Position numbers and translations under genes: made by a program. A stretch of DNA of 64,000 bases from an uncultured Lawsonia sp. (GTDB lineage Bacteria; Desulfobacterota; Desulfovibrionia; Desulfovibrionales; Desulfovibrionaceae). The stretch spans positions 5,924 to 69,923 of the forward strand of contig CAZIFC010000007.1 of assembly GCA_964538355.1 (NCBI GenBank). The letters are read 5' to 3'. Below, piece by piece: positions 783 to 40,086 of this stretch (positions are counted from its first letter, which is position 1; every line of letters starts with the position of its first letter). The notes beneath the pieces are model-generated. The model ran no database searches, was not told the origin of the DNA, and worked only from the letters and a program-made list of their open reading frames with translations.

Positions 783-971
783 AATGAGTGCAATAACGGG
801 GTGTTTTCATACTCCGTCTTGTCCTGCAACCGAGTGGAGGGCCAGCTGTTCCGTCATGAGATCGGCACTTTTTTGTGCGAATGATTTCTGGTAGGCTTTG
901 CTCCCCGCAGCGTCTTGGGCAAGGGCTTCAAGGCGGATTTGCATCGCGTACCTCAATCCGGCTGGAGGCGT

Positions 972-3900: not shown

Positions 3901-4109
3901 TTATCGGCGTACTGCCGCTGGCCGTGAGCAAGGGGGCCGGTTCCGGCAGCCAGAACGCCATCGGCACGGGCGTCATGGGAGGAACCTTTTCCGCAACCGT
4001 GTTTGGGATCTTGTTTGTTCCTGTGTTTTTCGTAGTCGTCTTTCGCCTGCTTTCGCGCGTGGGCGGAACCGGGAAAGGCAGGGCAGGGAAAAAAGATATC
4101 ATGCCTTGA
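972..4109 (+). CDS. RND efflux permease, AcrB/MexB (HAE1) type
   Basis: MARFFIDRPVFAWVI N-terminus; proton-relay motifs LLVDDAIVVVEN, AKNAIL and RLRPILMTS. ATG 972 follows GGAGG. Confidence 0.95.
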   Translation: MARFFIDRPVFAWVISILIMMSGVVSIFQLPVTQYPRIAPPVVTITAKYSGASAQTLEDTVTQLIEQKLNGIDGLLYISSTSDASGRVSIRLTFDPDTNPDVAQMQVQNKLQLAMSSLPEDVTRQGLTVTKVADSYLQMYAFVSANDSMSAADLCDFVGSVILDPLSRVEGVGEVSLFGAPYAMRIWLDPSKLHSFKLTPSDVISAIKVQNKQISLGEVGSTPIESGQQLNVKIKAQRQLTSVSEFERILLRVNRDGSTVRLRDVARVELGQESYASSARYNGKPAAGVGIKLASDANALKTSEAVAAFLEAMRPYFPHGVEVVSPYDTVPFIRLSILEVVKTLLEAIALVFIVLYLFLQNIRATLIPSLAVPVVLLGTFGVMAAFGFSINTLTMFGMVLAIGLLVDDAIVVVENVVRVMHEDALPPREATIRTMQQITGALIGVAAVLSAVFVPMAFFGGTVGAIYRQFSLTIVSAMVLSVVVAVVLTPVLCATFLKPGNHISQHGFFGWFNRSFDRATIGYRNLVGVAVRRGGRLMILYLALLACGGWLLWRMPTAFLPDEDQGILTVQIQLGPGATETETLKVVERVERYFLENEKDVVHGMMLTLGRSSGGKGQSAAQGNIRLRDWSERDAPELRVRAIIDRANAAFSSIRNARVFVSAPPAIRSLGNATGFDFELQDQAGLGHEALIAARDQLIGLARRSPLLRNVRAYGQDDAPQLEVVLDQEKAGAFGLNIDAVNADLAAAWGGKYVNDFVDRSRVKKVYVQADGPFRMLPEDFGRWHFRNSEGEMVPFSSIGEAYWTYGPMQLERYNGVSAVRIQGRAAAGESSGTAMLEMERLMRELPEGIGYQWTGMSFQERLSGSQAPFLYALSIAVVFLCLAALYESWSIPLAVILVVPLGVLGAVAATGARGLSNDIYFQIGLLATIGLSAKNAILIVEFARELHRQGASLVDAAVEASRLRLRPILMTSLAFLIGVLPLAVSKGAGSGSQNAIGTGVMGGTFSATVFGILFVPVFFVVVFRLLSRVGGTGKGRAGKKDIMP

Positions 4110-4133
4110 CTTTAACGGGTTCGGCGGTACTCT
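4106..4133 (+). promoter_or_regulatory. possible sigma70 promoter for uspA
   Basis: TTGACT-16 nt-TACTCT about 50 nt upstream of the ATG. Confidence 0.4.
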
Positions 4134-4181
4134 AGGGACAAACCCTCGTGTCTGTCGAACTCGTTATGCAGGAGAAGCCTT

Positions 4182-4631
4182 ATGGAGATGAAGAAGATCC
4201 TTTGCGCTGTCGATTTGCAGGACAAGATCAACCCGGCCGTCGAATACACGAAAATGTTCGCGGAGGTTACGGACGCTTCAATCGTGCTGATTTACGTTAT
4301 TTCGTCTCGGTCCACCTATGAGAACCTGCAGATCCCCGTGGAAGAAATCGTGAAGGGGATGCGGGCCATCTGGGGACGCTCCCGGGAAGAGATGGATGCC
4401 TTCGCCAAGGCGCATTTCCCCGGCAAGGAGGTTCAGACCCTGATTTATGAAGGGCGGCCTGCCGAAAAGATTGTGGAAACGGCCAAGGAGCTGGGTGCGG
4501 ATATGATTGTAATGGGTACGCACGGACGTGAGGGGCTGGATCGCCTGTTCTTCGGGTCTGTCGCCAACGAGGTGGTGAAGACCGCCGAATGTCCCGTGCT
4601 GACCATCCGGCCCCATAAGCAGGAGGCGTAA
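4182..4631 (+). CDS. universal stress protein (UspA family)
   Basis: KKILCAVD N-terminus and ADMIVMGTHG...FFGSVANEVV motif. Confidence 0.93.
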   Translation: MEMKKILCAVDLQDKINPAVEYTKMFAEVTDASIVLIYVISSRSTYENLQIPVEEIVKGMRAIWGRSREEMDAFAKAHFPGKEVQTLIYEGRPAEKIVETAKELGADMIVMGTHGREGLDRLFFGSVANEVVKTAECPVLTIRPHKQEA

Positions 4632-4662
4632 GCCCGCCTTGCAACGCCTGACCTTGCAGCAG

Positions 4663-4697
4663 AAAAGAGGAGCACCTTCCCGTGTTCCTCTTTTTTT
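4663..4697 (+). terminator. intrinsic terminator
   Basis: AAAAGAGGAGCAC / GTGTTCCTCTTTT stem followed by a T run. Confidence 0.8.
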
Positions 4698-4854
4698 GTG
4701 CCGTTAAAAGACAAGTGATTCAAAGGGGAAAGGGAAATGTCTGAGAATCATCCAATGGTTGTTGTTATTTTTATTCATATTGTGTTACTCGTTACCTGAC
4801 GGCGCAAACGTGCCGGAGTCTCTTCAGATACATTTTAGAGAAGGAGTTTCGGGT

Positions 4855-5634
4855 ATGTGGAAAACGTTTCTGATGAGCGGGGCCTTGATGCTGTCCGTTT
4901 CCGGCGTTGCGCTGGCGCATTTTGGCATGGTGATTCCTTCCGCGAGCACGGTGACCGAGAAAAAGGACGCCAACGTGACGCTGGACGTTTCGTTTACGCA
5001 TCCTATGGAAATGCAGGGAATGCCCATGGCCGCGCCGAAATCCATGCGGGTGATCGCCAACGGCAAGAGCGAGGATCTGACCGGCACGCTCAAGCCCAAG
5101 AAGATTGTCGATCATGAGGCATGGACTACGCAGTACGCCATCAAGCGTCCCGGCGTATACCAATTCGTCATGGAACCCCAGCCGTACTGGGAACCTGCGG
5201 AAGACTGCTATATCGTCCACTACACCAAGACCTATGTGGCGGCCTTTGGCGAAGAGGAAGGCTGGGACGAACCCGTTGGCCTGAAAACCGAGATCGTGCC
5301 GCTGACCCGTCCTTTCGGCAATTATGCCGGGAATGCCTTTCAGGGGCAGGTGCTGCTGAACGGCAAGCCCGTTCCCGGCGCGATGGTCGAAGTGGAGCTG
5401 TACAACAAGGACAGGAGCTACGAAGCCCCCAACGACTACATGGTGACGCAGGTGGTCAAGGCAGATGCCAACGGTGTCTTCACCTACGCGGTTCCCTTCT
5501 CCGGCTGGTGGGGCTTTGCCGCCCTGAACACGGCTGACGAGAAGCTCGATCACGCCGGTTCTCCCAAGTCCGTAGAGCTTGGCGCGGTGCTGTGGGCAGA
5601 GTTTGTGGATCCTGTGGCTGCCAATCGCCCGTAA
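4855..5634 (+). CDS. periplasmic DUF4198 / NikK-like component of a Ni/Co ECF transporter
   Basis: Signal peptide ending [10 protein letters not shown]; first gene of an M-L-Q-O cluster; RBS AAGGAG. Confidence 0.8.
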
Positions 5635-5759
5635 TGCCCCGTTTTCTCGTGGTGCATCGGTGTTGGCGGGAACAGCGTTCCTGAACAGGGAAGGGCGCGG
5701 AACCGGGCCGGTTGAAAGGCCGGGTTCCGCCCCAACCGACGAACTCAGAGGGTTGGAAC

Positions 5760-6383
5760 ATGCATATTTCGGAAGGCGTGCTTTCTCCGGCGGTTCTTTG
5801 CGGTGGGGCGGCGTTGGCGGCGGTGGGCATTGCCATCGGGCTGCGGAAGCTGGATTATGATCGGCTGATGACGGTAGCGATTCTGGCGGCAACCTTTTTT
5901 GTCGGTTCGCTCATCCATGTGCCTATCGGGCCGAGCAGCGTGCACCTCATTCTGAATGGCCTTCTTGGGGTGCTGCTGGGCTGGGCGGCCTTTCCCGCCA
6001 TTTTCGTCGCCCTCATGCTTCAGGGCATCCTGTTCCAGTACGGCGGCATCACCGTGCTCGGCGTGAACACCTTGAACATGGCCTTCCCTGCGGTCGTCTG
6101 CGCCTGCCTGTTCCGCCCCCTGCTGCTGAAGTCTGCCCGCTGGCGAGCCTTTGGCGCGTTTTGCTGCGGGGCCTTTTCCGTCGCCGGGGCGGGCCTGCTG
6201 ACGGCGTTGTCCCTGAGTTTCAGCGAGGAAGGTTTTTTGCGGACGGCCCAGATCCTTTTTCTGGCCCATATTCCCGTCATGGTTGTGGAAGGCGTGATTA
6301 CCGCGCTGGCGGTTTCGTTCATAGCCAGAGTACGCCCGGAAATTCTGGAGTTTTCCAGATCAAAGGAGCCATCATGCGCGTAA
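5760..6383 (+). CDS. cbiM: Ni/Co ECF transporter S component (CbiM/NikM)
   Basis: N-terminal MHISEG metal-binding motif, HVPIGPSSVHL motif and multiple TM helices. Confidence 0.92.
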   Translation: MHISEGVLSPAVLCGGAALAAVGIAIGLRKLDYDRLMTVAILAATFFVGSLIHVPIGPSSVHLILNGLLGVLLGWAAFPAIFVALMLQGILFQYGGITVLGVNTLNMAFPAVVCACLFRPLLLKSARWRAFGAFCCGAFSVAGAGLLTALSLSFSEEGFLRTAQILFLAHIPVMVVEGVITALAVSFIARVRPEILEFSRSKEPSCA

Positions 6384-7012
6384 AGCTGTTGTGCGTGCCC
6401 TTGCTGTGCCTTGCGCTGGCCTCTCCCGCGCTGGCGCACAGGGTGAACATCTTTGCCTTTGTGGACGGTGACGCCGTACAGGTCGAGTGCGGCTTCAACA
6501 GGAGCCAGAAAGTCAAGGGCGGTACGGTCGAGGTGCTGGACGCGGTGACCGGGGCCAAGCTGGCGCAGGGGACAACCGACGACGGCGGCGTGTTCCGGTT
6601 CCCCGTGACCGGGGCAATCCGCGAGGCCGGGCATGATCTGACGATCCGCATCATTGCCGGAGAGGGACACCAGAACGACTGGACCGTCTCCGCCGATGAA
6701 CTGAAGGCGTCGGGCGGAGCGTCCGCCGTGCCGCCTGCTGCCGTGCCCGCGGTTTCGGCAGCGTCCGCCGGGCCGGTTCCCGCTGCTTCCGCGGCCTCCC
6801 CCGCCGCGCCTTCCCTGCCCCCGGCGCAGGGTGTGAGTGCGGCCGAGATAGCGCACATTGTAGATGCCGCACTGGATGCCAGGCTTTCCCCCATCAAGCG
6901 GATGCTTGCCGAACAGACGGAAGCCGGGCCGACACTGCGGGATATCATCGGCGGCATCGGCTGGATTTTCGGGCTGATCGGCGTTGCGGCCTACTTCCGG
7001 CGTCGTCCCTGA
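6374..7012 (+). CDS. CbiL/NikL-like accessory membrane protein
   Basis: Signal peptide then AHRVNIFA; C-terminal DIIGGIGWIFGL helix; lies between M and Q. Confidence 0.75.
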   Translation: MRVKLLCVPLLCLALASPALAHRVNIFAFVDGDAVQVECGFNRSQKVKGGTVEVLDAVTGAKLAQGTTDDGGVFRFPVTGAIREAGHDLTIRIIAGEGHQNDWTVSADELKASGGASAVPPAAVPAVSAASAGPVPAASAASPAAPSLPPAQGVSAAEIAHIVDAALDARLSPIKRMLAEQTEAGPTLRDIIGGIGWIFGLIGVAAYFRRRP

Positions 7013-7779
7013 TGTTTGACGAACCGTTTGCCCACGGGCGTTCTCCCGTGCACTCCCTCGACCCTCGGGTCCGCCTGGCGGCGGCGTTTGCGGGTGCGGT
7101 ATGCCTTGCCGTGCTGAGAACGCCGCAAGCCGCCGCCCTGGGTTTGGGGCTGGCAGGGCTGCTGCTTGGGCTGAGCAGGCCCTCGCCGCGCCTCGTGCTC
7201 CGCAGGCTTGCCGTGATCAATGCCTTCATCGCCTTTTTGTGGCTGACGGTTCCCTTCACCTCGGGCGGGGAACCGCTGGCCGTCTGGGGGCCGCTGGCGG
7301 TCAGCCGTTCCGGGATGCTGTTGACCCTGCTTGTCACCCTGAAGTCGAATGCCATTGTCCTGCTCTTTCTCGCGCTGGTGGCGACGATGGATTCCCCGAC
7401 CATCGGTTACGCGCTGGAGCGGCTGCGCTGTCCTCCCAAGCTGGTGTTTCTGTTCCTCTTCACGTATCGTTATCTGCACGTCATTGCCGATGAATGGCAC
7501 AAGCTGCATGTGGCCGCACGGCTGCGCGGCTTTGTGCCCCGCACGAACCTCCATACCTACCGTGCCATCGCCAACATGCTCGGCATGGTGTTCGTGCAGA
7601 GTTTCGACCGTTCCGTCAGAGTCTACGAAGCCATGTTGCTGCGCGGCTTTTCCGGCCGTTTCCAGTCGGTGACGGCATTCCGGGCCGCACCCCGGGACGC
7701 CGTGTTTGCCGTGGCAGCCCTTGCAGGCGCGGCGGGCATCCTCGCCCTTGATCTGTTTCTGGAGTTTTCCCGTGTCTGA
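7012..7779 (+). CDS. cbiQ: ECF transporter T component (CbiQ/NikQ)
   Basis: SPVHSLDPRVRL start; FTYRY and AMLLRGF motifs. Confidence 0.92.
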   Translation: MFDEPFAHGRSPVHSLDPRVRLAAAFAGAVCLAVLRTPQAAALGLGLAGLLLGLSRPSPRLVLRRLAVINAFIAFLWLTVPFTSGGEPLAVWGPLAVSRSGMLLTLLVTLKSNAIVLLFLALVATMDSPTIGYALERLRCPPKLVFLFLFTYRYLHVIADEWHKLHVAARLRGFVPRTNLHTYRAIANMLGMVFVQSFDRSVRVYEAMLLRGFSGRFQSVTAFRAAPRDAVFAVAALAGAAGILALDLFLEFSRV

Positions 7780-8491
7780 ACCCCTGCTGGAACTGGAACA
7801 TGTTTCCTTTGTCTATCCCGGAGGCCGAGAGGTCTTCCGTGACCTGCACTTTGCTTTCCGCCCGGATTGCCAGATCGGGCTGTACGGTCCCAACGGCAGC
7901 GGAAAGACCACGTTTTTTCGGCTGATCATGGGGCTGGCCAAACCCGGAACGGGCCGGATTCTGTTTCATGGGCGGCCTATGGAAACGGAAAGGGATTTCC
8001 GGGAACTGCGCTGCCGCATCGGGCTGGTGCTCCAGCATGCCGAGGATCAGCTGTTTTGCCCCACGGTGCTGGAAGACGTGGCGTTCGGCCCGCTGAATCT
8101 GGGCCTTTCGCAGGAAGAGGCGCGGGAGCGGGCAAGTGCCACCCTGCGGCGTCTGGGCTTGGAAGGGTTTGAGAACCGCCTGACGCATCGTCTGTCCGGC
8201 GGAGAGAAAAAGCTGGTGTCCCTGGCTTCCGTACTGGCGATGGAGCCGGAGGCCCTGCTTCTTGACGAGCCGACCAACGGGCTTGATCCAGAGGCCCGGC
8301 AGCGCATCATCGGCGTGCTGAAAACCTTGCCCACGGCCCGGATCATCATTTCCCACGATTGGGATTTTCTGGCGGAAACGTCCTCCGAATATCTGACGGT
8401 GGTGGACAGGCAGCTGACGTCAGCCGCGCCCTCTCAGGCGCACGCGCACACGCATCTTCACCCGCTTGGTTCCCACCCGCACGCGCACTAG
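7772..8491 (+). CDS. cbiO: ECF transporter ATPase (CbiO/NikO) with His-rich tail
   Basis: Walker A GPNGSGKTT, signature LSGGEKK, Walker B LLLDEP; GTG start overlaps cbiQ. Confidence 0.92.
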   Translation: MSEPLLELEHVSFVYPGGREVFRDLHFAFRPDCQIGLYGPNGSGKTTFFRLIMGLAKPGTGRILFHGRPMETERDFRELRCRIGLVLQHAEDQLFCPTVLEDVAFGPLNLGLSQEEARERASATLRRLGLEGFENRLTHRLSGGEKKLVSLASVLAMEPEALLLDEPTNGLDPEARQRIIGVLKTLPTARIIISHDWDFLAETSSEYLTVVDRQLTSAAPSQAHAHTHLHPLGSHPHAH

Positions 8492-8524: not shown

Positions 8525-8561
8525 AAAGGCCCCGATCCCTCACAGGGCCGGGGCCTTCTTT
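8525..8561. terminator. bidirectional terminator between convergent genes
   Basis: AAGGCCCCG / CGGGGCCTT stem with an A run before it and a T-rich run after it. Confidence 0.7.
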
Positions 8562-8585: not shown

Positions 8586-10001
8586 CTATTCGTAGCGTAC
8601 ATTCGGCCCCCGCTTGAATTCGAGCAGCTTCCACCAGTCCGGGCATCCCGCCGCAAGCTTGCCCTGCGGCTTCAGATCCTTCCCGGCAAAGGCGGGGAAG
8701 TCCTTGCCGTAGCGGTAGGCCCGGTGCACCTGCGTTTCGGGGTTGTTGTCGCGCTTGACGCAATAGGGCTGATCGTTTGAGGAAATGGGGTTGTTGTACT
8801 CCCAGACGATCTGTTTGTCGGGGGTGACTTCAAAAAGATGTCCGTTGTTGGTGGACGTGATGAGCCAGTTGCCGTTGGGGAGCTTTTGGGCGGCGGACTG
8901 GAAATCTGAATAGAAGCTGTTGTGATCGCTGGTTTCGAACTGCCAGACGACCTGATTGGTGGCGGGGTTGATTTCCATGACCGTGCTGCGGTTCGCGCTG
9001 GGGCGATGCGTGCCGTTGTTGAAAATGGAGAGATTGCCGTTGGCGAGCCACTCCACGTCATGCGAGCCGAAGAGGATCTGATCCCCGTCGTCGTGATAGC
9101 CGGAAGGAGCCTTGCCTGCACCGTAGGCGGCGGGATTGCCGTAACGCCAGACTATCTTTTTGGTCTTGCGGTCGATGAGGTAGATTTCCCCGAAGTCGCG
9201 GGAATTCACCGCATACTGGTCGGTCTTGGCGTTGTAGCGGATCGAATTCCAGTGCGTCCAGTCGGCACGGGCGAAATAGCCCATGTTCAGGGGAAGATGC
9301 CAGTTGATGTCGATCTGGTCAGGGCCGGTTCCGATGTTGTCCCACACATGCCATTCCCACGCGGTTTCACCCTTGGGCGTGATTTCAAGGATGGCGTCGG
9401 GCCAGATGCCCTGAAGCGGCTGCCCGTCCGGGCCTTGCCCGGGCATCTTCATACCGTTGCGGCTCAGGGCGGGGTCCTTGGGATCGCGCCCCTTGGCAAG
9501 GGCTTCATCGTAGGTTTTGTTTTCCCAGATCAGGATGGCGGTATTGCCATTGGGCAGGCGGTCAAATCCGTGGTGGGCGATCTGGCGCGGATTGCTGACC
9601 CTGTATTCCCAGATCACCTTGCCATCCCACGAATATTCGCGCAGCAGGCCGTACCAGCCGCCGAAGTTCACCGGGCTGCCGGGAATCTTTTCGGCGCGCA
9701 GGAGGTTCCCGTTCGGCAGCAGTTCCGCATAGAAGGCGGGGTTTTCATGCTTCCATGTGTGCACGACATTGCCTTCCATGTCGATGAGGTAGGTCGTCTT
9801 GCTGCCGGAATTGGGTTCCGTGCCGACCTTCCATGAAGACACCAGCGGATGGGGCGTAAACAGCGTGTAGCCGTCATAGGCCCGTGCCTTGTCGTACGAA
9901 AGCAGGCCGAGCGGGCCAGTGATGGCTTCGTAGGCTCCTGCGGGAACCGCCATCAGGGCCAGGGAAAGCAGGGCTGCGGCAACGGAAAGGGTTTTGAACA
10001 T
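8586..10001 (-). CDS. aryl-sulfate sulfotransferase (ASST family), secreted
   Basis: Signal peptide (…VPAGA|YEA); beta-propeller repeats (LPNGN, WEW/WEY); His motifs HWNSI and GSHDV. Confidence 0.85.
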   Translation of the reverse strand: MFKTLSVAAALLSLALMAVPAGAYEAITGPLGLLSYDKARAYDGYTLFTPHPLVSSWKVGTEPNSGSKTTYLIDMEGNVVHTWKHENPAFYAELLPNGNLLRAEKIPGSPVNFGGWYGLLREYSWDGKVIWEYRVSNPRQIAHHGFDRLPNGNTAILIWENKTYDEALAKGRDPKDPALSRNGMKMPGQGPDGQPLQGIWPDAILEITPKGETAWEWHVWDNIGTGPDQIDINWHLPLNMGYFARADWTHWNSIRYNAKTDQYAVNSRDFGEIYLIDRKTKKIVWRYGNPAAYGAGKAPSGYHDDGDQILFGSHDVEWLANGNLSIFNNGTHRPSANRSTVMEINPATNQVVWQFETSDHNSFYSDFQSAAQKLPNGNWLITSTNNGHLFEVTPDKQIVWEYNNPISSNDQPYCVKRDNNPETQVHRAYRYGKDFPAFAGKDLKPQGKLAAGCPDWWKLLEFKRGPNVRYE

Positions 10002-10065
10002 GGGAAGCTCCTTTTCGGCTCGCCAGGGCGGGCGGGCCGGTTGTATGCGGGGAGGAGATCAGACG

Positions 10066-11469
10066 TTACAGAACCATTTTCCAGTAGGGGATGGCGATGA
10101 AGAAGACGAATGCGGCGGTCAGGACCATGCGGATGGCAAGCACCTTCACCATATCCTTGAAGAGCATGTAGCCGGAGCTGAAGAAGTAGAGGAGCACCGC
10201 GTATTCATACGGGAAGATGTAGTTGTCGAGTCCGTATTGGAACGCATAGAACAGGGTGCGGGGGTCCATGTTCATCTGCATCCCGAGTTCGGTTATGGGC
10301 GAGCTCATGGTCGTGGTTGCGGCGAGCGGGGTCAGCAGGAAGTTTGCCAGCGCGCCGAGCACATAGGAAGCCAGCCCCGCCGTGGAGGTGGTCATGCCGT
10401 GCAGGTAGGGCAGGGTTCCGTCGGCGATCCACGCGGTGACCTTGAGGTATCCGCCCGCGCTGCCGATGGTCATGCAGCCCATGATGAAGAACAGCGGCGC
10501 AAAGTTGATCTTGCTGAACGTGGCACCGTCGAGGAGCCGGACGCCGGGCAGGAAGGCCACAAAAGTCACCCCGAGGAGAACCAGCCCCGCGGCGACGCCG
10601 TGCAGCTTGTCGGTAGCGAGCAGAATAAGGGTAAGCAGCATGAGCAGGGCGGCCCGCTTCTGTTCGGGAGTGACCGGGCCAAGCTCCTGATACTTGATTT
10701 GCAGGGTGGCGTGGAGGGTCTGGCGGTCCACCTTCGAGGGCAGGACGAGCATGACGAGGCCCACGGACATGGCGGTATACAGCATGCCGGGGATGAAATT
10801 GTGCACGGCGAATTCCATCCAGCTGGTTGTCACGCCGGAAACCCGCTGCACAAGCTCCATGCCAAGCACAATGTCGGCCCCGCCGGTCAGGTAGCACAGC
10901 TTGGTCGAGGCAACGGCGAGGCAGCAGGTGAGAATGACGGCAGTGGCTTCGCGGCTCTTGGCCTTGAAGTCCAGCGCGTCACACAGGCTGATGCCGATGG
11001 CGCAGAAGATTGCCGCCTTGCCCGTGACGGCCGGAACAAGCGGGGCCACGATGGAGACGGCACAGGTGATGCCGATGAGGGTTCCGGTGAAGCTGCCGCC
11101 CATCAGCCGTACGCAGGTCAGGCCGATGCGCTTCCCGAGGCCTGTTTCCTGAAGGATCTTGCCGAGTGCGAAGCCGCCGATGACAATGAGGGGAACCTCA
11201 GAGAGCCACGGCGCGTAGACAACCTGCTGCTTCACACCGCAAAAGACGATGTAGAAGACGGGAAGGATAAGGCCTACGGCAATTTCGTTCATGACGTCCG
11301 TAGCCCAGATGGAGATGGCCCAAGCGGTAAGGGCAAGGAAAAGGGCCATCTGGTGGGTGACGACTTGTCCGTCTACGGGCATCATCCAATAGACGAAAAC
11401 CGGAATAACAAACGTGATGATCCATTTTAACGCAAGCGTCTTGTGCTTTCCCATGTCCATCAGAGTCAT
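10066..11469 (-). CDS. SLC13/DASS family anion permease
   Basis: About 13 TM segments; ETGLGKRIG motif; typical DASS length and layout. Confidence 0.8.
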   Translation of the reverse strand: MTLMDMGKHKTLALKWIITFVIPVFVYWMMPVDGQVVTHQMALFLALTAWAISIWATDVMNEIAVGLILPVFYIVFCGVKQQVVYAPWLSEVPLIVIGGFALGKILQETGLGKRIGLTCVRLMGGSFTGTLIGITCAVSIVAPLVPAVTGKAAIFCAIGISLCDALDFKAKSREATAVILTCCLAVASTKLCYLTGGADIVLGMELVQRVSGVTTSWMEFAVHNFIPGMLYTAMSVGLVMLVLPSKVDRQTLHATLQIKYQELGPVTPEQKRAALLMLLTLILLATDKLHGVAAGLVLLGVTFVAFLPGVRLLDGATFSKINFAPLFFIMGCMTIGSAGGYLKVTAWIADGTLPYLHGMTTSTAGLASYVLGALANFLLTPLAATTTMSSPITELGMQMNMDPRTLFYAFQYGLDNYIFPYEYAVLLYFFSSGYMLFKDMVKVLAIRMVLTAAFVFFIAIPYWKMVL

Positions 11470-11537
11470 TTTTTTCTCCTCCAGAGAGTGGTGCTCGGAA
11501 CGTGAACACAGTGTAAGCGTCTTCCGCAGGGGAATGA

Positions 11538-11553
11538 TGTAACCGTTGCTACA
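11538..11553. promoter_or_regulatory. candidate Crp-family operator 1 (TGTA-N8-TACA)
   Basis: TGTAACCGTTGCTACA in the divergent DASS/regulator intergenic region. Confidence 0.6.
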
Positions 11554-11734
11554 TTTTTCCCAAGGAACGTTTTTTTTGTGGAAGAAAACACAAAGAGCTT
11601 AACCTCTGGATTTGCAAGGATTGCCCGGAACAGGGAAGTGGTGTATCAAAACGCTATTGATAGCGTTTGTAAAAAAAGCTGTCTCGTTCCCCGAAAAAGG
11701 CTGTCAAAAGAGGCTTTTTGCACAAGGAGTTCCT

Positions 11735-12421
11735 GTGAACACGGATGATGCGAAGCTTATCGAATTTACGCACATACCACCGGAAGCGGGCGTATGGCGG
11801 CAAGTGCTCCACCTTGGAACCCGGCTGCACTTTCGCAAGGGCGAGGAAGTGATGCACGGAGGCGCGAAGGGGGAATACCTTTATTACGTCCATCAGGGGG
11901 AGGTGCGGCTGATGCGTTCGACGCTGGACGGGCGGGAAAAGATCCTGATGTCCATGCGCTCGGGGAGCATTACGGGCGAGACGCCTTTTTTTGACGAAGT
12001 CCCCGCCCGCAGCAGTATTGTCGCGGGAACGGATTGCGTTGTCTATGCCTTCTCCCATGACTGTGTAATGCATGAAATTGTTCCTTGCTACCCAGAGCTG
12101 ACGCTGGCTCTGCTGCATTCGCTGGCATCCAAGGTCAGGGTTTTGTGCAACCAGTCGGTGAGCCTCAGCCTTGAAGAGCTGCCTGCGCGCATCTGCCGGT
12201 TTCTGCACCTTCGGATGCGGAACAGCGGGCAGGGCGATCCCGATCCCCGTATCCTGCCGGGGCTGAATCAGCAGGAGCTGGCGAATCTGCTCGGCGTGCA
12301 CCGGGTTACACTCAACAAGACCCTGCGGGAACTGGAGCGGGAGGGAGTCCTCGGCCCCTACTCGCGAGATGAGGTCTATGTTGTGGATATGGAGCGTTTT
12401 CGGGAACTTGCCTTGAAATAG
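11735..12421 (+). CDS. Crp/Fnr family transcriptional regulator
   Basis: cNMP-binding-type domain (LYYVHQGEV, GETPFFD) and C-terminal HTH (NQQELANLLGVHRVTLNK); GTG after AAGGAG. Confidence 0.9.
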   Translation: MNTDDAKLIEFTHIPPEAGVWRQVLHLGTRLHFRKGEEVMHGGAKGEYLYYVHQGEVRLMRSTLDGREKILMSMRSGSITGETPFFDEVPARSSIVAGTDCVVYAFSHDCVMHEIVPCYPELTLALLHSLASKVRVLCNQSVSLSLEELPARICRFLHLRMRNSGQGDPDPRILPGLNQQELANLLGVHRVTLNKTLRELEREGVLGPYSRDEVYVVDMERFRELALK

Positions 12422-12522
12422 ATGCCGAAAACACTGGCAACATGCTGGATTGTTGGATGTTTTTGCCTTCGGCCCCGTTTTTTCCGGGGAGGCGGAAAGA
12501 AAAGGGAACTTTTTGCGCCAAA

Positions 12523-12538
12523 TGTAACAAAGGCAACA
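12523..12538. promoter_or_regulatory. candidate Crp-family operator 2
   Basis: TGTAACAAAGGCAACA upstream of the second ASST; shares TGTAAC-N4-GCWACA with site 1. Confidence 0.55.
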
Positions 12539-12618
12539 GTTCGGGAAGCCGCTTCGGGATAGTGTCGGCCCATAGAGAGAAACGCTCTCCTCAAGACAAC
12601 ACTATCAAGGAGCATGTC

Positions 12619-14070
12619 ATGGGCCACCCGACAATCTATCCCACCGGCGTCACTGTTTACGATCCCGAAAAGTGCTGGAACGGACTCACCATTTTTCAGG
12701 CGCAGGAAGTCGGCGCAGTCCTCATGGACATGAACGGCCGTGAAGTGAACGTCTGGAAGGGTGTGCATGGTATGCCCAACAAGATCCTTCCCGGCGGCTA
12801 TCTGGTGACCAGCCGGGGGCGGCGCAGCGGCAAGTTCAGCGTACAGGACGGGCTTGATGTCGTTCAGGTGGATTGGGATGGCAACGTTGTCTGGACATTC
12901 GACCGCAACGAATTCATTGAAGATCCCGGCTTCCCCGGTCGCTGGATGGCCCGCTACCACCACGATTTCCAGCGGGAAGGCAGCACCACCGGCTATTATG
13001 CCCCGGGCATGGAGCCGAAGGCCCTTTCCGGCAACACGCTGGTGCTCGCGCACCGCAACGCCCGCAATCCCAAAATTTCCGACAAGCAGCTCCTTGACGA
13101 CGTGATTCTTGAAGTCGATTGGGACGGCGATATCGTATGGGAATGGAACTGCCACGAGCATTTTGACGAAATGGGCTTCCGCGAAGGCCCCAAGAATACC
13201 CTGGCCCGCAATCCCAACTATCGCCCCACGCAGCCCGAAGGAATGGGCGACTGGATGCATATCAACTCCATGTCCGTGCTTGGCCCCAACAAGTGGTATG
13301 ACGCGGGCGACGAGCGTTTCCATCCCGACAACATCATCGTGGACGGCCGCGAAGCCAACATCATTTTCATCATCTCCAAGGCGACCGGAAAGATTGTCTG
13401 GAAACTCGGCCCGGATTACGACAACTCGCCGGAGGCCAAGGCCATCGGCTGGATCATCGGGCAGCACCACGCGCACATGATTCCGCACACCCTGCCCGGG
13501 GGCGGGAATATCCTCATCTTCGACAACGGCGGATGGGGTGGATACGACGTGCCGAATCCCGGAGCTCCTACCGGGGTGAAGGCTGCGCTGCGCGACTACT
13601 CCCGGGTACTGGAAATCGATCCGGTGGCCATGAAGATCGTGTGGCAGTACACGCCGACGGAAGCGGGATTCCTCGCTCCGATGGACAGCAACCGATTCTA
13701 CAGCCCCTTCATCAGCGGCATGCAGCGTCTGCCCAACGGCAATACGCTGATTACCGAAGGCTCCAACGGACGCGTTTTTGAAGTGACTCCCGACCACAAG
13801 ATCGTCTGGGAATTCGTTTCTCCCTATAAGGGCAAGTTTGTTCCCATGAACATGACGTACCGGGCCTACCGGGTTCCCTACGAGTGGGTTCCGCAGGTCG
13901 CCAAGCCCGTTGAAACTCCCATCGCGCCGCTGGATGTGGCTTCGTTCCGCGTGCCCGGTGCGGCGGCCCTCGGCGATCGGGACAAGGAAGTGAGCGTTGC
14001 AGGCTGCGTGCCCTACGAGGGCAGCAACGCCCTGTGCGTGGCTTCCGTGGATGATCCCGAAGACAAGTAG
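12619..14070 (+). CDS. aryl-sulfate sulfotransferase (ASST family), cytoplasmic
   Basis: MGHPTIYPTG start after AAGGAG; no signal peptide; motifs YHHDF, MHINS, GQHHAH, QRLPNGNTLI. Confidence 0.87.
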   Translation: MGHPTIYPTGVTVYDPEKCWNGLTIFQAQEVGAVLMDMNGREVNVWKGVHGMPNKILPGGYLVTSRGRRSGKFSVQDGLDVVQVDWDGNVVWTFDRNEFIEDPGFPGRWMARYHHDFQREGSTTGYYAPGMEPKALSGNTLVLAHRNARNPKISDKQLLDDVILEVDWDGDIVWEWNCHEHFDEMGFREGPKNTLARNPNYRPTQPEGMGDWMHINSMSVLGPNKWYDAGDERFHPDNIIVDGREANIIFIISKATGKIVWKLGPDYDNSPEAKAIGWIIGQHHAHMIPHTLPGGGNILIFDNGGWGGYDVPNPGAPTGVKAALRDYSRVLEIDPVAMKIVWQYTPTEAGFLAPMDSNRFYSPFISGMQRLPNGNTLITEGSNGRVFEVTPDHKIVWEFVSPYKGKFVPMNMTYRAYRVPYEWVPQVAKPVETPIAPLDVASFRVPGAAALGDRDKEVSVAGCVPYEGSNALCVASVDDPEDK

Positions 14071-14095
14071 ACGCTTCCTCCACGCTCTCCGCAAG

Positions 14096-14135
14096 AAGGG
14101 CCGTCCTCCGTTGGTGGGGGACGGCCCTTTTTTTT
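14096..14135 (+). terminator. intrinsic terminator
   Basis: AAGGGCCGTCCTCC / GGGGGACGGCCCTT stem plus T run. Confidence 0.85.
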
Positions 14136-14392
14136 GCGGCTTTAATCCGCTATCCTGCCTGATATTCTCAATCCCTCCACTTGCCTCCGGTACTGTTCTG
14201 CGTCATAGCTGGAACAGTCTTTTTCCATCCCCGTTTTTTCGGACAAGCCGGGCGTTCCGATCCCGCACCGTATTCATGCCACATGGAAAGTCTGCTCGGG
14301 AGCAGGGGGCGGGGCGTTGCGATGAAGCCCGGCCGCTTCTCTCCCAAGCCGTTTTCTCGTTCTTTTCCTTCTCTTTTTACAAAGGTTTTTTT

Positions 14393-16927
14393 ATGAAAAA
14401 GAAGCATTCCCGCCAGCGCGGTTATTTTGGTGATACAGTCCGTGAGGAGCCGTCCCGTCCGGCGCGGTCCACGCGCAAGGCGTCCCGGCAGTCCGGCGAG
14501 GTCACGGCGGCCCATGTCCCGGGCGGCCTAGACCCTCGTGAAGTTCTTGAGATGATGGGCAAGGTTCGCCACCCGGTGCGCCTTGACGATCTGATCCGCT
14601 TTTTGGATCTGTCCCGGCGCGACAAGCATCCGCTTGAGGCCCTGCTAGACAGCCTTCAGGCGGAGGGGCGGGTTATCCGGCTGCGCGGCGGCAAGTGGGT
14701 AGAGGCGTCTCAGGCGCGTATCGTTGCTGGCGTTCTTTCCATCCAGCGGTCTGGAGCGGGCTTCGTGACGCCCGATGCCGTGCAGGAGGCTCCCGAAGAA
14801 GCTCCGAAGCCCGTGGACGGCGACAAGCGCGGGCGGCGCAATCCCGAGTCGCGCCTTCAGCCGGACATTTTCATTCATCCGGGGTTCTTTGGCGATGCAT
14901 GGCACGGGGACCGCGTGGAGGTTGCGCTCCAGCCCGCTTCGCAGCAGCGGGGCGGCAGGATGAAGAACCCCGAGGGCCGGATCCTGCGTGTCCTTGAGCG
15001 TCGCCAGAAAGAGCTGGCTGTCCATGTCACCCGGAACCGGACGCCGCGCGGCGTGCTGTGCCGTCCGGCGGACCCGAGGCTGGATTTTTTGCTGGATACG
15101 GATGTTTCTGCATTGCAGACGCCTCCGAAACTCGGGGAGCTGCTGCTGGTTGCGCCCGGCGAAAAGCTGGATGACGAGCTGTGGGAAGCCACGGCCCGCG
15201 TGTCGCTGGGCCTTGAGGAAGATGCGATGGTGCAGGAGCGTCTGACCAAGCTCAACCATCAGATTCCGCTGGACTTTCCGCCCAATGTCCTGGCGGAGGC
15301 CGACGAGCTGGAACAGCGCGCGTCACAGGGCGTGGCGGATCTTGGCGGATTGAAGCCGCTGGAGCGTCTGGAAGCCGCCCCGACCCCGGATCAGGTATCC
15401 CGCGTTTCCACCGCAAAACGGCAGGATTTGCGCGGCGTGCCGTTCGTGACCATCGACGGCGAGGATGCCCGCGACTTCGACGATGCCGTTTATGCCCGCC
15501 CGCTGGCGCATTCCCCGGATGGGGCAACGTGGGAGCTGTGGGTCGCCATCGCGGACGTGAGCCATTTCGTGCAGCCCGGATCGCGGCTGGATCGCGAGGC
15601 CCGGGAGCGCGGCAACTCCTACTATTTCCCCACCTCTGTGGAGCCGATGCTTCCCGAAGTGCTGTCCAACGGCCTGTGCAGCCTGCGTCCCGACGAGGAC
15701 AGGCTGGTCATGGCGGCGAGGGTGGGCTTTGACGACAGGGGGATTCCGCGCTCGTCGGCGTTTTTCCCCGGCGTGATCCGTTCGCGGGGGCGGCTTACCT
15801 ATGAAGGCGTGCACGAGGCACTGGAGCAGGGCGGGGCCTTGCTGGAGCGTCATCCCTATCTGAAGGATGCCGAGACGCTGGCCCATGTGCTGCTCAAGCG
15901 GCGGCAGGAGCGGGGGAGCCTCGATTTCGATCTGCCGGAAGCGCAGTTCATCGTCAACCGGGAAACCGGCGAGGTGGAGGGCATCCGGCGGCGCAGCCGT
16001 GTCTTTGCCCATCGCCTGATTGAAGAGTTCATGCTGGCGGCGAACGAGGCCGTGGCCCGGTATCTGACGGAAAAGGGCACGCCGTTCCCGTACCGCATCC
16101 ATCCCGCGCCCGATCCCGAACGCCTGTCCACGCTGTTCCGAACGCTGGCGTCCACCGATCTCGCCCAGAGCGAGCTTTTGCAGCTCAAACGGGGAGAGGC
16201 TCCGTCCCCGGCGCGGCTTCGGGACATTCTGGCGCAGGCCGAGGGCACGCCTCAGGAATATCTGGTGGGGCGTCTGGTGCTGCGCTCCATGATGCAGGCC
16301 CGCTATTCCCCCGAACCGGGCGAGCATTTCGGGCTGGCCTCGCCGTGCTACTGCCACTTTACCTCGCCGATCCGCCGCTATGCCGACCTGTTGGTTCACC
16401 GCGCCCTGTCCTTTGCGCTGGGTGCGGCGCAGGGTCCGATCCTTGCGGGCCACAAGCTGCTCATGGCGGCGGATCAGTGCAATGCCCGCGAGCGCGCGGC
16501 GACCGAGGCGGAGCGCGAGATTGCCCGGCGTCTCGGCTGCCTGCTGCTGAAGGAGCGGACGGGCGAGACGTTCGAGGGGGTCGTTTCCGGGGTGTCGGAT
16601 TTCGGCTTTTTCGTGGAATTCAACGAGATGCCCGTGGAAGGCATGGTTCGGCTCACGAGCTTTCGTGACGACTGGTTCGAGTACGACCCTGATCGGCAGG
16701 AGCTTATCGGCGTGGGCACGGGACGGCGTTTCCGGCTCGGGCAGCCCGTCACCGTGCGGCTGGTTGACGTGAACGTCGGCCGGCTCGAAGTGAATCTCGA
16801 ACTTGAGGGAACTACAGATACGGGGAGAAAAGCCAGCTCGCGGCGTTCCGCAGGCGGGCGGGAAACGCGGGGAAGGTCTTCCGGACAGAAACGGAACGGC
16901 TTTGTACCTCGTCATAAAAGGCGGTGA
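14393..16927 (+). CDS. rnr: ribonuclease R
   Basis: RNB motif VTIDGEDARDFDDA, HFTSPIRRYADL, S1 domain and a basic C-terminal tail. Confidence 0.93.
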   Translation: MKKKHSRQRGYFGDTVREEPSRPARSTRKASRQSGEVTAAHVPGGLDPREVLEMMGKVRHPVRLDDLIRFLDLSRRDKHPLEALLDSLQAEGRVIRLRGGKWVEASQARIVAGVLSIQRSGAGFVTPDAVQEAPEEAPKPVDGDKRGRRNPESRLQPDIFIHPGFFGDAWHGDRVEVALQPASQQRGGRMKNPEGRILRVLERRQKELAVHVTRNRTPRGVLCRPADPRLDFLLDTDVSALQTPPKLGELLLVAPGEKLDDELWEATARVSLGLEEDAMVQERLTKLNHQIPLDFPPNVLAEADELEQRASQGVADLGGLKPLERLEAAPTPDQVSRVSTAKRQDLRGVPFVTIDGEDARDFDDAVYARPLAHSPDGATWELWVAIADVSHFVQPGSRLDREARERGNSYYFPTSVEPMLPEVLSNGLCSLRPDEDRLVMAARVGFDDRGIPRSSAFFPGVIRSRGRLTYEGVHEALEQGGALLERHPYLKDAETLAHVLLKRRQERGSLDFDLPEAQFIVNRETGEVEGIRRRSRVFAHRLIEEFMLAANEAVARYLTEKGTPFPYRIHPAPDPERLSTLFRTLASTDLAQSELLQLKRGEAPSPARLRDILAQAEGTPQEYLVGRLVLRSMMQARYSPEPGEHFGLASPCYCHFTSPIRRYADLLVHRALSFALGAAQGPILAGHKLLMAADQCNARERAATEAEREIARRLGCLLLKERTGETFEGVVSGVSDFGFFVEFNEMPVEGMVRLTSFRDDWFEYDPDRQELIGVGTGRRFRLGQPVTVRLVDVNVGRLEVNLELEGTTDTGRKASSRRSAGGRETRGRSSGQKRNGFVPRHKRR

Positions 16928-35788: not shown

Positions 35789-36802
35789 TTGATGACCTGC
35801 AAGAAGATTCTTCCCCTGGTGTTGGCTGCTTTGTTCTTGTGGTCTGCTGCTCCTGCAGTGGCCGCTCCCGAAATGACGCTGAAAATCGCGGCGGGAGACC
35901 CCGAAGATTCCGAAATGGGCGTCGTGGGTAATGCCTTCAAGAAGTATGTGGAAGAAAAGAGCAACGGCAAAGTGGAAGTCCAGTGCTTCTACGGCGGCTC
36001 CCTCGGTGACGAAAGCGAATGCTTCCGTAACGTGCAGAAAGGCACCCTGCCTCTGGCCCTGGGCGGCATCGCCAACCTCGTGCCTTTCGAAAAGAAGCTT
36101 GGCATGCTGACTCTTCCCTACCTCTTCGCCAACATTGACGAAGTGGTTGCCGGCACCAACGGTGCTCCTGCCGAACTGCTCAACAAGTACGCCACCAAGG
36201 CCGGTTTCCGCGTTCTTACCTGGACCTACACCGACTTCCGTTACATCTCCAACTCCAAGCGTCCCATCACCAAGATGGCCGACATCCAGGGCCTGAAGTT
36301 CCGCGTTCCCCAGAGTGCCGTGCTCATCGCTGCCTACAAGGCCTTCGGCGGCAGCCCGACTCCTATCTCTTGGGCCGAAACCTTCACCGCTCTCCAGCAG
36401 GGCGTTGTTGACGGCCAGTGCTACGGCTACATCGGCTTCAAGGCCATGAAGTTCAATGAAGCCAACCAGAAGTACATCACCGAAGTCCACTACACCTATC
36501 AGCTGCAGCCTCTGGTCATCAGCGAACGCGTGTTCAAGAAGATGACCCCCGAAATGCAGAAGCTGATGATCGACGCCGGCAAGTACGCTCAGGACACCGT
36601 TCTGAAGTACCAGATCGAAAATGCTGACGCCGCCAAGAAGGAACTCATCGCTGGCGGTATCCAGGTTGCCCAGCTTGAAGACGAAGACCAGTGGAAGAAG
36701 GCCGCCATTGAAAAGGTATGGCCCGAAATGGCCGACTTCGTGGGTGGCAAGGCTGCTATCAACGAATACCTCAAGGCTTGCGGCAAGCCTGAATGGAAGT
36801 AA
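35789..36802 (+). CDS. dctP: TRAP transporter substrate-binding protein 1
   Basis: Signal peptide, LTLPYLF, GLKFRVP, ALQQGVVDG. Confidence 0.92.
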   Translation: MMTCKKILPLVLAALFLWSAAPAVAAPEMTLKIAAGDPEDSEMGVVGNAFKKYVEEKSNGKVEVQCFYGGSLGDESECFRNVQKGTLPLALGGIANLVPFEKKLGMLTLPYLFANIDEVVAGTNGAPAELLNKYATKAGFRVLTWTYTDFRYISNSKRPITKMADIQGLKFRVPQSAVLIAAYKAFGGSPTPISWAETFTALQQGVVDGQCYGYIGFKAMKFNEANQKYITEVHYTYQLQPLVISERVFKKMTPEMQKLMIDAGKYAQDTVLKYQIENADAAKKELIAGGIQVAQLEDEDQWKKAAIEKVWPEMADFVGGKAAINEYLKACGKPEWK

Positions 36803-36814
36803 GTCGTTCTTGAT

Positions 36815-37012
36815 GAAGACAGGGTATCGGGCCTGCGGGGGCGGGCCTGATACCACTGCGCATCTGTGAAGGAGTCCGTGTAGAGCCGTCTATCGGCCCC
36901 GGTTATCGGGATAGCGGAGACGGCAACACGGATTCCTTCTGCGCGGGTCTTCCCTGACTCAAGGTTGTGCAGCGGGCCGTAACCCGCTCCGGTTCCTGCC
37001 GTAACGGGAACC
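36815..37012 (+). other. highly structured intergenic RNA segment
   Basis: Two 14-bp stems, an enclosing GAAGAC/GTCTTC pair and two hairpins sharing the loop CCGTAA. Confidence 0.55.
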
Positions 37013-37058
37013 GTATGGCCTTGCGGTTTCAAAGGTTTTGGGAGGAGGAATAGCAAGC

Positions 37059-38908: not shown

Positions 38909-38988
38909 GCTGAGGGCGGCGGGGCGGATGCTCCGCCGCCTCTGCTTCCACCATCAGCAATTGTAAAAAGACGAAAAAAGAGAACATT

Positions 38989-40011: not shown

Positions 40012-40030
40012 CCTTAAAAGCCTCATCGGA

Positions 40031-40065
40031 GAAAGGCCCGGACAGTCTGCCCGGGCCTTTCTTTT
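40031..40065. terminator. bidirectional terminator
   Basis: GAAAGGCCCGG / CCGGGCCTTTC stem plus T run, between convergent genes. Confidence 0.8.
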
Positions 40066-40086
40066 ATGGAAAGCCGCAAAGGGAAA

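Follow-up and report, generated by a model that had tools for sequence, protein, structure and literature searches.

The arylsulfate sulfotransferases (ASSTs) that do not depend on 3'-phosphoadenosine 5'-phosphosulfate (PAPS), insofar as we found them characterized in the literature, are either exported enzymes of the AssT type or Cpz4, a protein of caprazamycin biosynthesis (PDB 9KF4/9KF6). AssT of Escherichia coli CFT073 (EcAST, PDB 3ELQ/3ETS) and the ASSTs of the Desulfitobacterium hafniense type are six-bladed propellers, and the active site of AssT is formed by His252, His356, Asn358 and Arg374 together with the transiently sulfated His436 (PMC13426309); the natural substrates and the physiological role of the bacterial enzymes are stated as unknown in a review of 2026 (PMC13426309). 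Here we analyze a stretch of 64,000 nt from an uncultured Lawsonia sp. (contig CAZIFC010000007.1), hereafter called the window, in which a module of four genes at positions 8586-14070 encodes two proteins of this PAPS-independent propeller family, a secreted form or ASST1 and a cytoplasmic form or ASST2, together with an anion permease and a regulator of the Crp family. The folds and families of these proteins are known; what is new is the conserved system around ASST2 and the chemistry that it implies. Our best explanation, which we put forward tentatively, is that an anionic sulfate ester, of an aryl or other activated kind, is imported and processed by the module, with release of sulfite. 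With greater reserve, we consider it possible that the cytoplasmic ASST clade forms the core of an unrecognized, ATP-independent aryl-sulfate reductase route, in which a lipoyl relay would drive the conversion of organic sulfate esters to sulfite. In the literature searched, which covered few subscription journals, we found nothing on a cytoplasmic ASST clade, on ASSTs in Desulfovibrio or Bilophila or on a link of ASSTs to GcvH, dihydrolipoyl dehydrogenase (Lpd) or glutaredoxin, and likewise nothing on an aryl-sulfate reductase, on the respiration of sulfate esters or on aryl sulfates that would supply sulfite or accept electrons. It also contained no characterization of the four-gene unit, in agreement with the initial annotation of this DNA.

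Both window proteins score above the curated cut-offs of the two Pfam families concerned, namely 24.2 bits for PF05935 and 27 bits for PF14269. ASST1 (8586-10001, minus strand, 471 aa) matches the former with E 1.6e-26 (93.7 bits) and the latter with E 4e-18 (66.2 bits), and ASST2 (12619-14070, plus strand, 483 aa) does so with E 5.9e-25 (88.5 bits) and E 3.6e-19 (69.7 bits), respectively; neither is matched by any NCBIfam model. The similarity of the plain sequences is remote, since ASST1 reaches E. coli AssT only with E 0.045 (phmmer) and ASST2 reaches Cpz4 with 3e-7, and a profile of 50 homologues finds Cpz4 at 2.5e-15 and AssT at 1e-7. AlphaFold2 models built from homologue alignments of each protein have a predicted local distance difference test score (pLDDT) of 87.8 for ASST1 and 85 for ASST2, and their top Foldseek matches in the PDB are Cpz4 (5e-19 and 6e-18, respectively) and AssT (1e-15 and 2e-10). 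Residues H144, H250, N252, R268 and H314 of ASST1, as well as H115, H214, N216, R244 and H283 of ASST2, align with His252, His356, Asn358, Arg374 and His436 of AssT, the equivalence of His252 lying in a low-scoring segment of the alignment. These columns are invariant across both families, with that of H214/H250 being nearly so. The residue corresponding to the sulfated histidine lies within the motif GQHHAHM in ASST2 (H283) and GSHDVEW in ASST1 (H314), to be compared with TQHTAW in AssT and WQHDV in Cpz4, and occurs in all of the 50 aligned sequences and all of the 87 homologues from the loci described below; the full sulfuryl-binding set of five residues is likewise invariant in these 87 ASST2 homologues. 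The two ASST-family enzymes of the initial annotation, one exported and one cytoplasmic, are thus borne out by the profile searches and by intact catalytic residues.

The two proteins are members of uncharacterized short clades of the ASST superfamily. With approximately 470-480 aa they are shorter than the enzymes of the AssT type (571-600+ aa, 70-76 kDa), and the N-terminal beta-sandwich domain of AssT is probably missing in them, because the alignments cover the propeller only. AssT is exported, like ASST1, whereas ASST2 differs from it in being cytoplasmic and in having a C-terminal tail that bears a cysteine; partner genes of the dsbL/dsbI type are not present beside the window ASSTs. Both proteins match Cpz4 (about 470 aa) best, in structure as well as in sequence, and share with it the DxxHINS and QH motifs, but at an identity of only 16-19%. 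Cpz4 is, moreover, a tailoring enzyme of an actinomycete antibiotic, without the transporter, regulator and thiol-relay context and without the conserved tail cysteine.

ASST2 and its 483-aa homologues have no signal peptide, as judged by eye, and form a clade of more than 7,000 database homologues that is found in 445 species-level genomes. Identity to ASST2 is 80-95% within Desulfovibrionaceae, including 87% in Bilophila, and still 65-70% in Desulfotomaculum, Desulforamulus, Desulfosporosinus and Neomoorella sulfitireducens; the clade also reaches Moorella. Such identity between Desulfovibrionaceae and Firmicutes indicates that ASST2 is under strong constraint. The clade is isolated: when representatives at 50% identity were searched exhaustively, its nearest neighbours had no more than 52% identity. 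An exact-sequence look-up of the window ASST2 returned no database record. Among the named best 80 of the 445 genome hits, the hosts are almost all sulfate- or sulfite-reducing and include Desulfovibrio, Bilophila, Mailhella, Desulfomicrobium, Desulfotomaculum, Desulforamulus, Desulfosporosinus, N. sulfitireducens and an Olavius delta-1 symbiont. Two loci labelled as Bulleidia sp. (L014) and Odoribacter splanchnicus (L022) carry an ASST2 of 84-85% identity with a DASS permease, a glutaredoxin-like (Grx-like) gene and a Crp gene in a gene order of the Desulfovibrio type; both contigs probably stem from Desulfovibrionaceae and were mis-binned.

The C-terminal tail of ASST2 is specific to the clade (FRVPGAA...ALCVA followed by an acidic end) and bears C473, which is present in all 86 complete locus homologues; among 113 full-length database homologues, the tail cysteine was seen to be missing in at most one (P0058). 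No tail cysteine is found in ASST1 or in the secreted ASST2 relatives P0364 and P0366. The pLDDT of the tail is mixed along its length and low at the very end, and in the model the segment with C473 looks mobile. In the relatives P0022 and P0363 (589 aa), a thioredoxin-fold domain with a CxxC motif is fused directly after a tail of the ASST2 type. Another protein, P0367 (596 aa), also ends in a thioredoxin domain but lacks the tail cysteine and has H214 replaced by D and H283 by A; with two catalytic histidines lost, it may represent a paralogue that is non-catalytic or acts differently. The ASST2 clade additionally possesses five more invariant histidines, namely H145, H181, H235, H284 and H286.

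The genomic neighbourhood of ASST2 was compared in 79 species-level genome loci, in which the neighbouring open reading frames (ORFs) were clustered and their presence was re-scored by tblastn. In 70 of these loci, ASST2 has an organic-anion importer no farther than 6 kb away, and this holds for 44 of the 45 loci with flanks of 4 kb or more on either side. The importers are of mutually unrelated types, DASS (37 loci), MFS (14), TRAP (14) and TTT (6), and because four unrelated types accompany ASST2 we infer that its substrate is an imported organic anion. The conserved core of the system consists of a cytoplasmic ASST and an organic-anion importer. Most loci also have a regulator nearby, which belongs to the Crp family (46 loci), the LysR family (7) or a GntR-like group (6). 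At least one gene for a Grx-like protein, GcvH or Lpd stands beside ASST2 in 53 of the loci. The Grx-like protein (48 loci) has about 279 aa, with a glutaredoxin-like N-terminus and a C-terminus resembling the NrdG activase without its radical-SAM cysteine motif, and its sole invariant cysteines are C11 and C14 (CxRC). GcvH (24 loci) exceeds the cut-offs set for this protein and has retained the lipoyl-lysine motif, and Lpd (29 loci) matches TIGR01350 with 565 bits against a cut-off of 409. In the Desulfotomaculum/Desulforamulus loci L044-L046, the row of genes also includes lipB (octanoyltransferase) and lipA (lipoyl synthase), placed between Lpd and the Crp gene (approximately 6300-7850 in L044), and the relay pathway thus has dedicated lipoate maturation there. 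An outer-membrane porin of the DESULF_POR1 family joins in Desulfovibrionaceae (19 loci).

The fullest locus, L005 of Solidesulfovibrio alcoholivorans, reads permease(-), Crp(+), ASST2, Grx-like, Lpd, GcvH, ASST1 and porin. The same four genes as in the window occur together in L003, L005 and D. legallii (L082/L083), and an ASST1 homologue lies near ASST2 in only 5 of the 79 loci, plus D. legallii; the secreted ASST is an optional accessory of the ASST2 system. Conservation of the cluster, the absence of which the initial annotation had named as refuting, holds in the sense that its genes are kept, though rearranged, in relatives, but the conserved entity is ASST2 with a transporter and not the unit of four genes.

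The permease of the window (10066-11469, minus strand, 467 aa) matches PF00939 over residues 13-466, with E 4.5e-24 and 85.7 bits against a cut-off of 27, which supports the DASS/SLC13 label it had been given. Its score against TIGR00785, the subfamily of sodium-coupled anion symporters, is 90.6 bits and falls below the cut-off of 198.6, so that the protein is a divergent member of DASS. Its closest solved relatives are the chloroplast carriers DiT1/DiT2 (PDB 9MCR/9MCU; E 1e-7, at low identity), and its hairpin tip PAVTGKA aligns with PSVSARA and PSTTARA of these proteins, the shared pattern being P-x-V/T-S/T-x-K/R-A. Ser-Asn-Thr motifs at the hairpin tips are a mark of sodium-coupled DASS members, and none occurs anywhere in the permease sequence; carriers of the bacterial CitT type are antiporters of the same family. 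Since the nearest solved kin are exchangers in which a basic tip replaces Ser-Asn-Thr, exchange of aryl sulfate for phenolate is plausible, and the permease probably works as an exchanger rather than as a symporter.

ASST1 begins with a Sec-type signal, MFKTLSVAAALLSLALMAVPAGA|YEA, as judged by eye from the sequence, and has two conserved cysteines, C414 and C453, which probably form a disulfide. Proteins of this type show ordinary divergence, with 47-50% identity in other deltaproteobacteria and Acidobacteriota, and their genes are found also solitary (L084) or beside an alkyl sulfatase of the SdsA type (L086). The latter is a Syntrophorhabdales contig (regions 3773-5152 and 7001-8377) in which the ASST1-type gene has in its vicinity the SdsA-like gene (Lactamase_B + Alkyl_sulf_dimr), a two-component system of the sigma-54 kind and another ASST. 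The pairing with an alkyl sulfatase in L086 suggests that the secreted clade handles sulfate esters.

The regulator (11735-12421, plus strand, 228 aa) combines a cNMP_binding domain (PF00027, 67.7 bits) with HTH_Crp_2 (PF13545, 51.3 bits), and its PDB matches are CRP-family proteins, among them mycobacterial CRP (8e-19) and CprK (3e-7). It has no FNR-type cysteine cluster at the N-terminus, the first 100 of its 228 residues being without cysteine. The segment around residues 85-100 (...DEVPARSSIVA...) keeps an Arg-Ser pair where CRP binds the cyclic phosphate; that this pair might bind an anionic group, for instance a sulfate ester, is pure speculation. CprK of Desulfitobacterium resembles the window regulator in its Crp-family fold, its small-molecule domain and its palindromic operator of the 5-N4-5 type, but the sequence of that operator is different and CprK is not the closest Crp relative of the regulator.

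The operator in the window, TGTAAC-N4-GCNACA (16 bp), has only two matches in the 64 kb even when one mismatch is allowed, and one lies before each transcription unit. Operator 1 (TGTAACCGTTGCTACA, 11538-11553) precedes the permease ATG by 69 nt within the intergenic region of the divergent genes, and Operator 2 (TGTAACAAAGGCAACA, 12523-12538) is 81 nt upstream of the ASST2 ATG. Because both promoters share it, the permease-ASST1 unit and ASST2 appear to be co-regulated, presumably through the adjacent Crp-family protein acting at both operators. By chance, 0.41 matches are expected in 64 kb and 10 of 100 shuffles give at least two; the stronger argument comes from the placement of the operators and their conservation across species. 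Operator 1 is kept at the same place in L003, L005, L007, L008, L029 and L038, and in the sub-clade formed by these loci and the window the operator occurs both before ASST2 and in the divergent permease/Crp region. Many Desulfovibrionaceae loci have a wider consensus, ATGTTGC-N4-GCAACAT, at a distance of 95-160 nt upstream of ASST2, and this consensus also precedes the MFS, porin and Grx-like genes in relatives. These results uphold the earlier view of a regulated unit, and together the data suggest a co-regulated gene set in a sulfite-respiring gut bacterium. Another CRP-like palindrome, TTGTG-N8-CACAA at approximately 11576-11593, was rejected since it is not conserved in L003.

In the mechanism that we propose, the single Crp-family regulator would bind TGTAAC-N4-GCNACA at both promoters, and the DASS-type carrier, probably by exchange, would bring the sulfate ester into the cytoplasm, where H283 of ASST2 would take the sulfuryl group as in known ASSTs. 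The group would then pass from H283 to a thiol rather than to a phenol, the likeliest acceptor being C473 in the enzyme's own tail, and a dithiol would resolve the S-sulfo-cysteine to sulfite plus a disulfide. The relay would run in the order NAD(P)H, Lpd, lipoyl-GcvH, the Grx-like CxxC protein and ASST2, with its genes sitting at another locus in the genome of the window, and the sulfite would feed dissimilatory sulfite reductase. ASST1, which in Desulfovibrio relatives is accompanied by the porin, would have an accessory role outside the inner membrane: various aryl sulfates of the exterior would donate their sulfuryl groups, through this enzyme, to a phenolic anion that the carrier recognizes and that would serve as a shuttle. 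Reductive release of sulfite is proposed because of the dithiol partners, the invariant tail cysteine and the thioredoxin fusions of the cytoplasmic clade, and with sulfite as the product it would be understandable that ASST2 is retained by dissimilatory sulfite reducers, including Bilophila and N. sulfitireducens. The sulfate/sulfite couple lies at about -516 mV and the couple of adenosine 5'-phosphosulfate (APS) and sulfite at about -60 mV; by our estimate, an ester with high group-transfer potential could put the reduction within reach of a lipoyl/NADH donor.

The window locus looks like a trimmed version of a longer arrangement. L003, from an uncultured Bilophila, has the same order ASST1-permease-Crp-ASST2 in DNA that is approximately 86% identical to the window, and continues past ASST2 with a Grx-like gene (MSITLYTAPDCLRCK...), while L001 and L004 have Grx-like, Lpd and GcvH genes in this position. 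The similarity of the window DNA to L001, L003 and L004 stops at the ASST2 stop codon, after which the window has a terminator and RNase R. The module can thus no longer be regarded as self-contained, as it had originally been described, since its nearest relatives (L001, L003, L004 and L005) extend past ASST2 with Grx-like, Lpd and GcvH. In three gut metagenome runs, the depth of the window is 25-26, 42-48 and 69-80, and contigs with 80-90% similarity to the Grx-Lpd-GcvH genes of L001 have depths of 25, 43 and 72-81 in the same runs. Because the depths match, the relay seems to be encoded at another locus of the same genome, a correspondence that is suggestive but not proof. Runs X2 and X3 contain another contig (13.5 and 16 kb), on which an MFS carrier gene follows a paralogue of ASST2. 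Its depths are 33 and 58, compared with 48 and 78 for the window, and it derives from a second locus or else from another species of Desulfovibrionaceae.

Several observations weigh against the release of sulfite by such a relay. For the transfer of a sulfuryl group from sulfo-His to a thiol we found no precedent in the ASST literature, and the five additional invariant histidines of the clade could indicate a different chemistry, for example a metal site. Genes for Grx-like protein, GcvH, Lpd and porin were searched for in the 64-kb window and none was found. Approximately one-third of the loci have no adjacent relay gene, including the TRAP-linked loci of Mailhella and that of B. wadsworthia ATCC 49260 (L009), which consists of MFS-ASST2 only. 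The link to sulfate- and sulfite-reducing lineages is limited to the named hits mentioned above, and no RNA run contains the locus, which is carried only by the three metagenome DNA runs.

A different account is that both enzymes carry out phenol-to-phenol transfer, in periplasm and cytoplasm, and thereby re-sulfate or de-sulfate phenolics for detoxification or metabolite editing, with the carrier moving the conjugates. Both proteins keep every catalytic residue of the characterized ASSTs, all characterized members of the family are transferases, and the Crp-family relative CprK senses a phenolic ligand; its response to chlorophenols is a precedent for phenolic effectors in the Crp/Fnr family. 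This account nevertheless leaves unexplained the genes for Grx-like protein, GcvH, Lpd and LipAB, the tail cysteine and the thioredoxin fusions, as well as the restriction to sulfite reducers and the extreme conservation. A cytoplasmic transferase would also need a pool of phenolic acceptors in the cytoplasm, and for this there is no obvious gain. We consider it unlikely. Sulfuryl transfer on both sides of the membrane, as proposed in the initial annotation, accordingly fits the residues but does not account for the dithiol partners, the C-terminal cysteine and the fusions.

Re-purposing of the ASST2 clade is, in our judgment, improbable; the enzyme would in that case carry out a thiol-dependent reaction on an imported organic anion other than an O-sulfate ester, such as an S- or N-sulfonate, a disulfide or another oxidized sulfur compound, and the name ASST would be misleading. 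The five extra histidines and the isolation of the clade (neighbours of at most 52% identity) are in line with re-purposing, and so are the loss of H214 and H283 in the thioredoxin-fused P0367 and the presence of TRAP and TTT carriers, which as a rule bind carboxylates. It is difficult to reconcile, however, with the complete sulfuryl-binding set of all 87 homologues and with the recurrence of ASST2 beside a second, secreted ASST in Desulfovibrionaceae, and the proximity of a secreted ASST homologue to an SdsA-type alkyl sulfatase elsewhere ties the family to sulfate esters.

Simple desulfation, with water as the acceptor in ASST2, sulfate serving as a sulfur source or feeding ATP sulfurylase/APS reductase, and the thiol proteins merely keeping ASST2 reduced, would agree with the ability of sulfate reducers to use sulfate, and weak aryl-sulfatase side activity with water as acceptor has been reported for an ASST (PMC13426309). 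A lipoyl relay with its own lipA/lipB would yet be a large investment for housekeeping protection, and compared with a periplasmic sulfatase there would be no saving in importing the ester and liberating its sulfate in the cytoplasm. Moreover, Bilophila keeps the gene at 87% identity although it is not known to respire sulfate, and a host that does not respire sulfate would gain nothing from its release. On balance, desulfation has little probability. That the four genes are chance neighbours with unrelated roles is scarcely credible: the rarity of the linkage between the secreted ASST and ASST2 (5 of 79 loci) would favour it, but operator and synteny exclude it, since the shared operator occurs only at these two promoters in 64 kb, the ASST2-carrier-Crp linkage recurs in differing gene orders across genera, and the same four genes are together in L003, L005 and D. 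legallii.

Coming to the structure of the window locus, the ORF list and the sequence give the gene order ASST1(-), permease(-), regulator(+) and ASST2(+) between two hairpins, so that two ASST genes do flank the permease and the Crp regulator as had been claimed, with unchanged outer coordinates. Terminators had been claimed at both outer ends, and hairpins are indeed present there, although of unequal strength. The one at 8528-8549, G+C-rich and with a weak U-run, lies between the convergent cbiO(+) and ASST1(-) (folding free energy -28.4 kcal/mol, z -1.4), and is a probable terminator serving both directions. The intrinsic terminator after ASST2 (14089-14139, plus strand) has a 15-bp G+C stem followed by U8 and is strong (-39.3 kcal/mol, z -5.1, matched by none of 200 shuffles). 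In the 64 nt that separate permease and ASST1 on the same strand, a terminator-like site was looked for and none was seen; the two genes are probably co-transcribed. The ribosome-binding site of ASST1 is AAAGGAG. The regulator more likely starts at GTG 11735, behind AAGGAG, than at the TTG 11612 of the ORF list, and ASST2 starts at ATG 12619 (MGHPTIYP...), 6 nt after AAGGAG, the listed position 12442 being too early. A scan for sigma-70 promoters gave 1 site compared with 1.8 expected from shuffles, which is no better than chance, and therefore no promoter was called.

Some listed ORFs were discarded or corrected. A 572-aa antisense ORF across the whole of ASST2 (12376-14094, minus strand) is a shadow ORF of G+C-rich DNA, and antisense ORFs of the related loci (clusters 6, 12, 19, 20 and 24) are artefacts of the same kind in G+C-rich genes. 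The RNase R ORF (13997-16927, plus strand) is listed with a start about 400 nt early, its real ATG being at 14393.

Upstream of the module (915-8491), the window encodes an RND pump of the AcrB type (915-4109), a universal-stress-like ORF and an ECF uptake operon of the CbiM/N/Q/O type for cobalt or nickel (approximately 4850-8491). The genes of this region are not linked to ASST2 in relatives, save for sporadic weak matches to a CbiO-like ABC ATPase. A TRAP set further downstream (35789-42163) comprises binding proteins of the DctP type (35789-36802 and 38989-40011) and DctQ/DctM (37038-38908), followed by an EamA-family exporter (40087-41169, minus strand) and a LysR-like gene (41210-42163, minus strand); it weakly resembles the ASST2-linked TRAP systems of Mailhella. 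From a phage-type integrase (42756-44015, PF00589) onward, that is over 42756-64000, the G+C content drops, its value at third codon positions going from about 0.7-0.8 to 0.37-0.6. This part contains the surface-polysaccharide genes Capsule_synth (46116-48143), UDP-GlcNAc 2-epimerase (49623-50954) and NeuB (50951-51979), a 1492-aa ORF without Pfam match (54149-58627) and an AMP-binding enzyme (58631-60022). It probably represents a capsule island, with genes for nonulosonic acid, that was gained by horizontal transfer.

If the release of sulfite from imported esters is true, the system would open a new way into dissimilatory sulfur metabolism in which no ATP has to be spent on activating sulfate, and environmental sulfate and sulfite reducers would be able to respire sulfate conjugates of host, dietary and sedimentary origin. 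Bilophila and gut Desulfovibrio would turn phase-II conjugates such as cresyl, indoxyl, polyphenol and drug sulfates into H2S, so that the detoxification products of the host would be linked with the formation of sulfide and with what becomes of sulfated drugs. An unrecognized sink for organic sulfate esters would exist in anoxic soils and sediments, and in the organism of the window the secreted ASST would widen the range of donors by trans-sulfating a shuttle anion. Even without the idea of sulfite, the combination of an ASST-fold enzyme with four importer classes and a lipoyl relay is a widespread, unexplained and easily testable system.

Two known systems resemble the chemistry proposed for ASST2. 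In CysH, the thioredoxin-dependent PAPS/APS reductase, the sulfuryl group lands on a cysteine of a flexible C-terminal tail and a thioredoxin or glutaredoxin dithiol resolves the adduct to sulfite and a disulfide. The tail cysteine, the thioredoxin fusions and the Grx-like neighbours of ASST2 are alike, but the donor would be an aryl sulfate acting through sulfo-His, with no ATP required. CysH is a mechanistic analogue only, since the propeller fold of ASST2 is unrelated and a search for PAPS reductase homology gave no Pfam or NCBIfam match in this protein. Lipoyl relays are represented by Lpd-DlaT-AhpD-AhpC of Mycobacterium tuberculosis and by the lipoate-binding proteins LbpA of sHdr sulfur oxidation. 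They resemble the proposed chain from NADH via Lpd, a lipoylated carrier and a thioredoxin-like adaptor to a terminal enzyme, as well as in having dedicated lipoate-maturation genes in the same locus, as in L044-L046. The relay proposed for ASST2 would differ from them in its terminal enzyme, which has the ASST fold, and in its adaptor, in which a Grx-like domain is fused to an NrdG-like domain.

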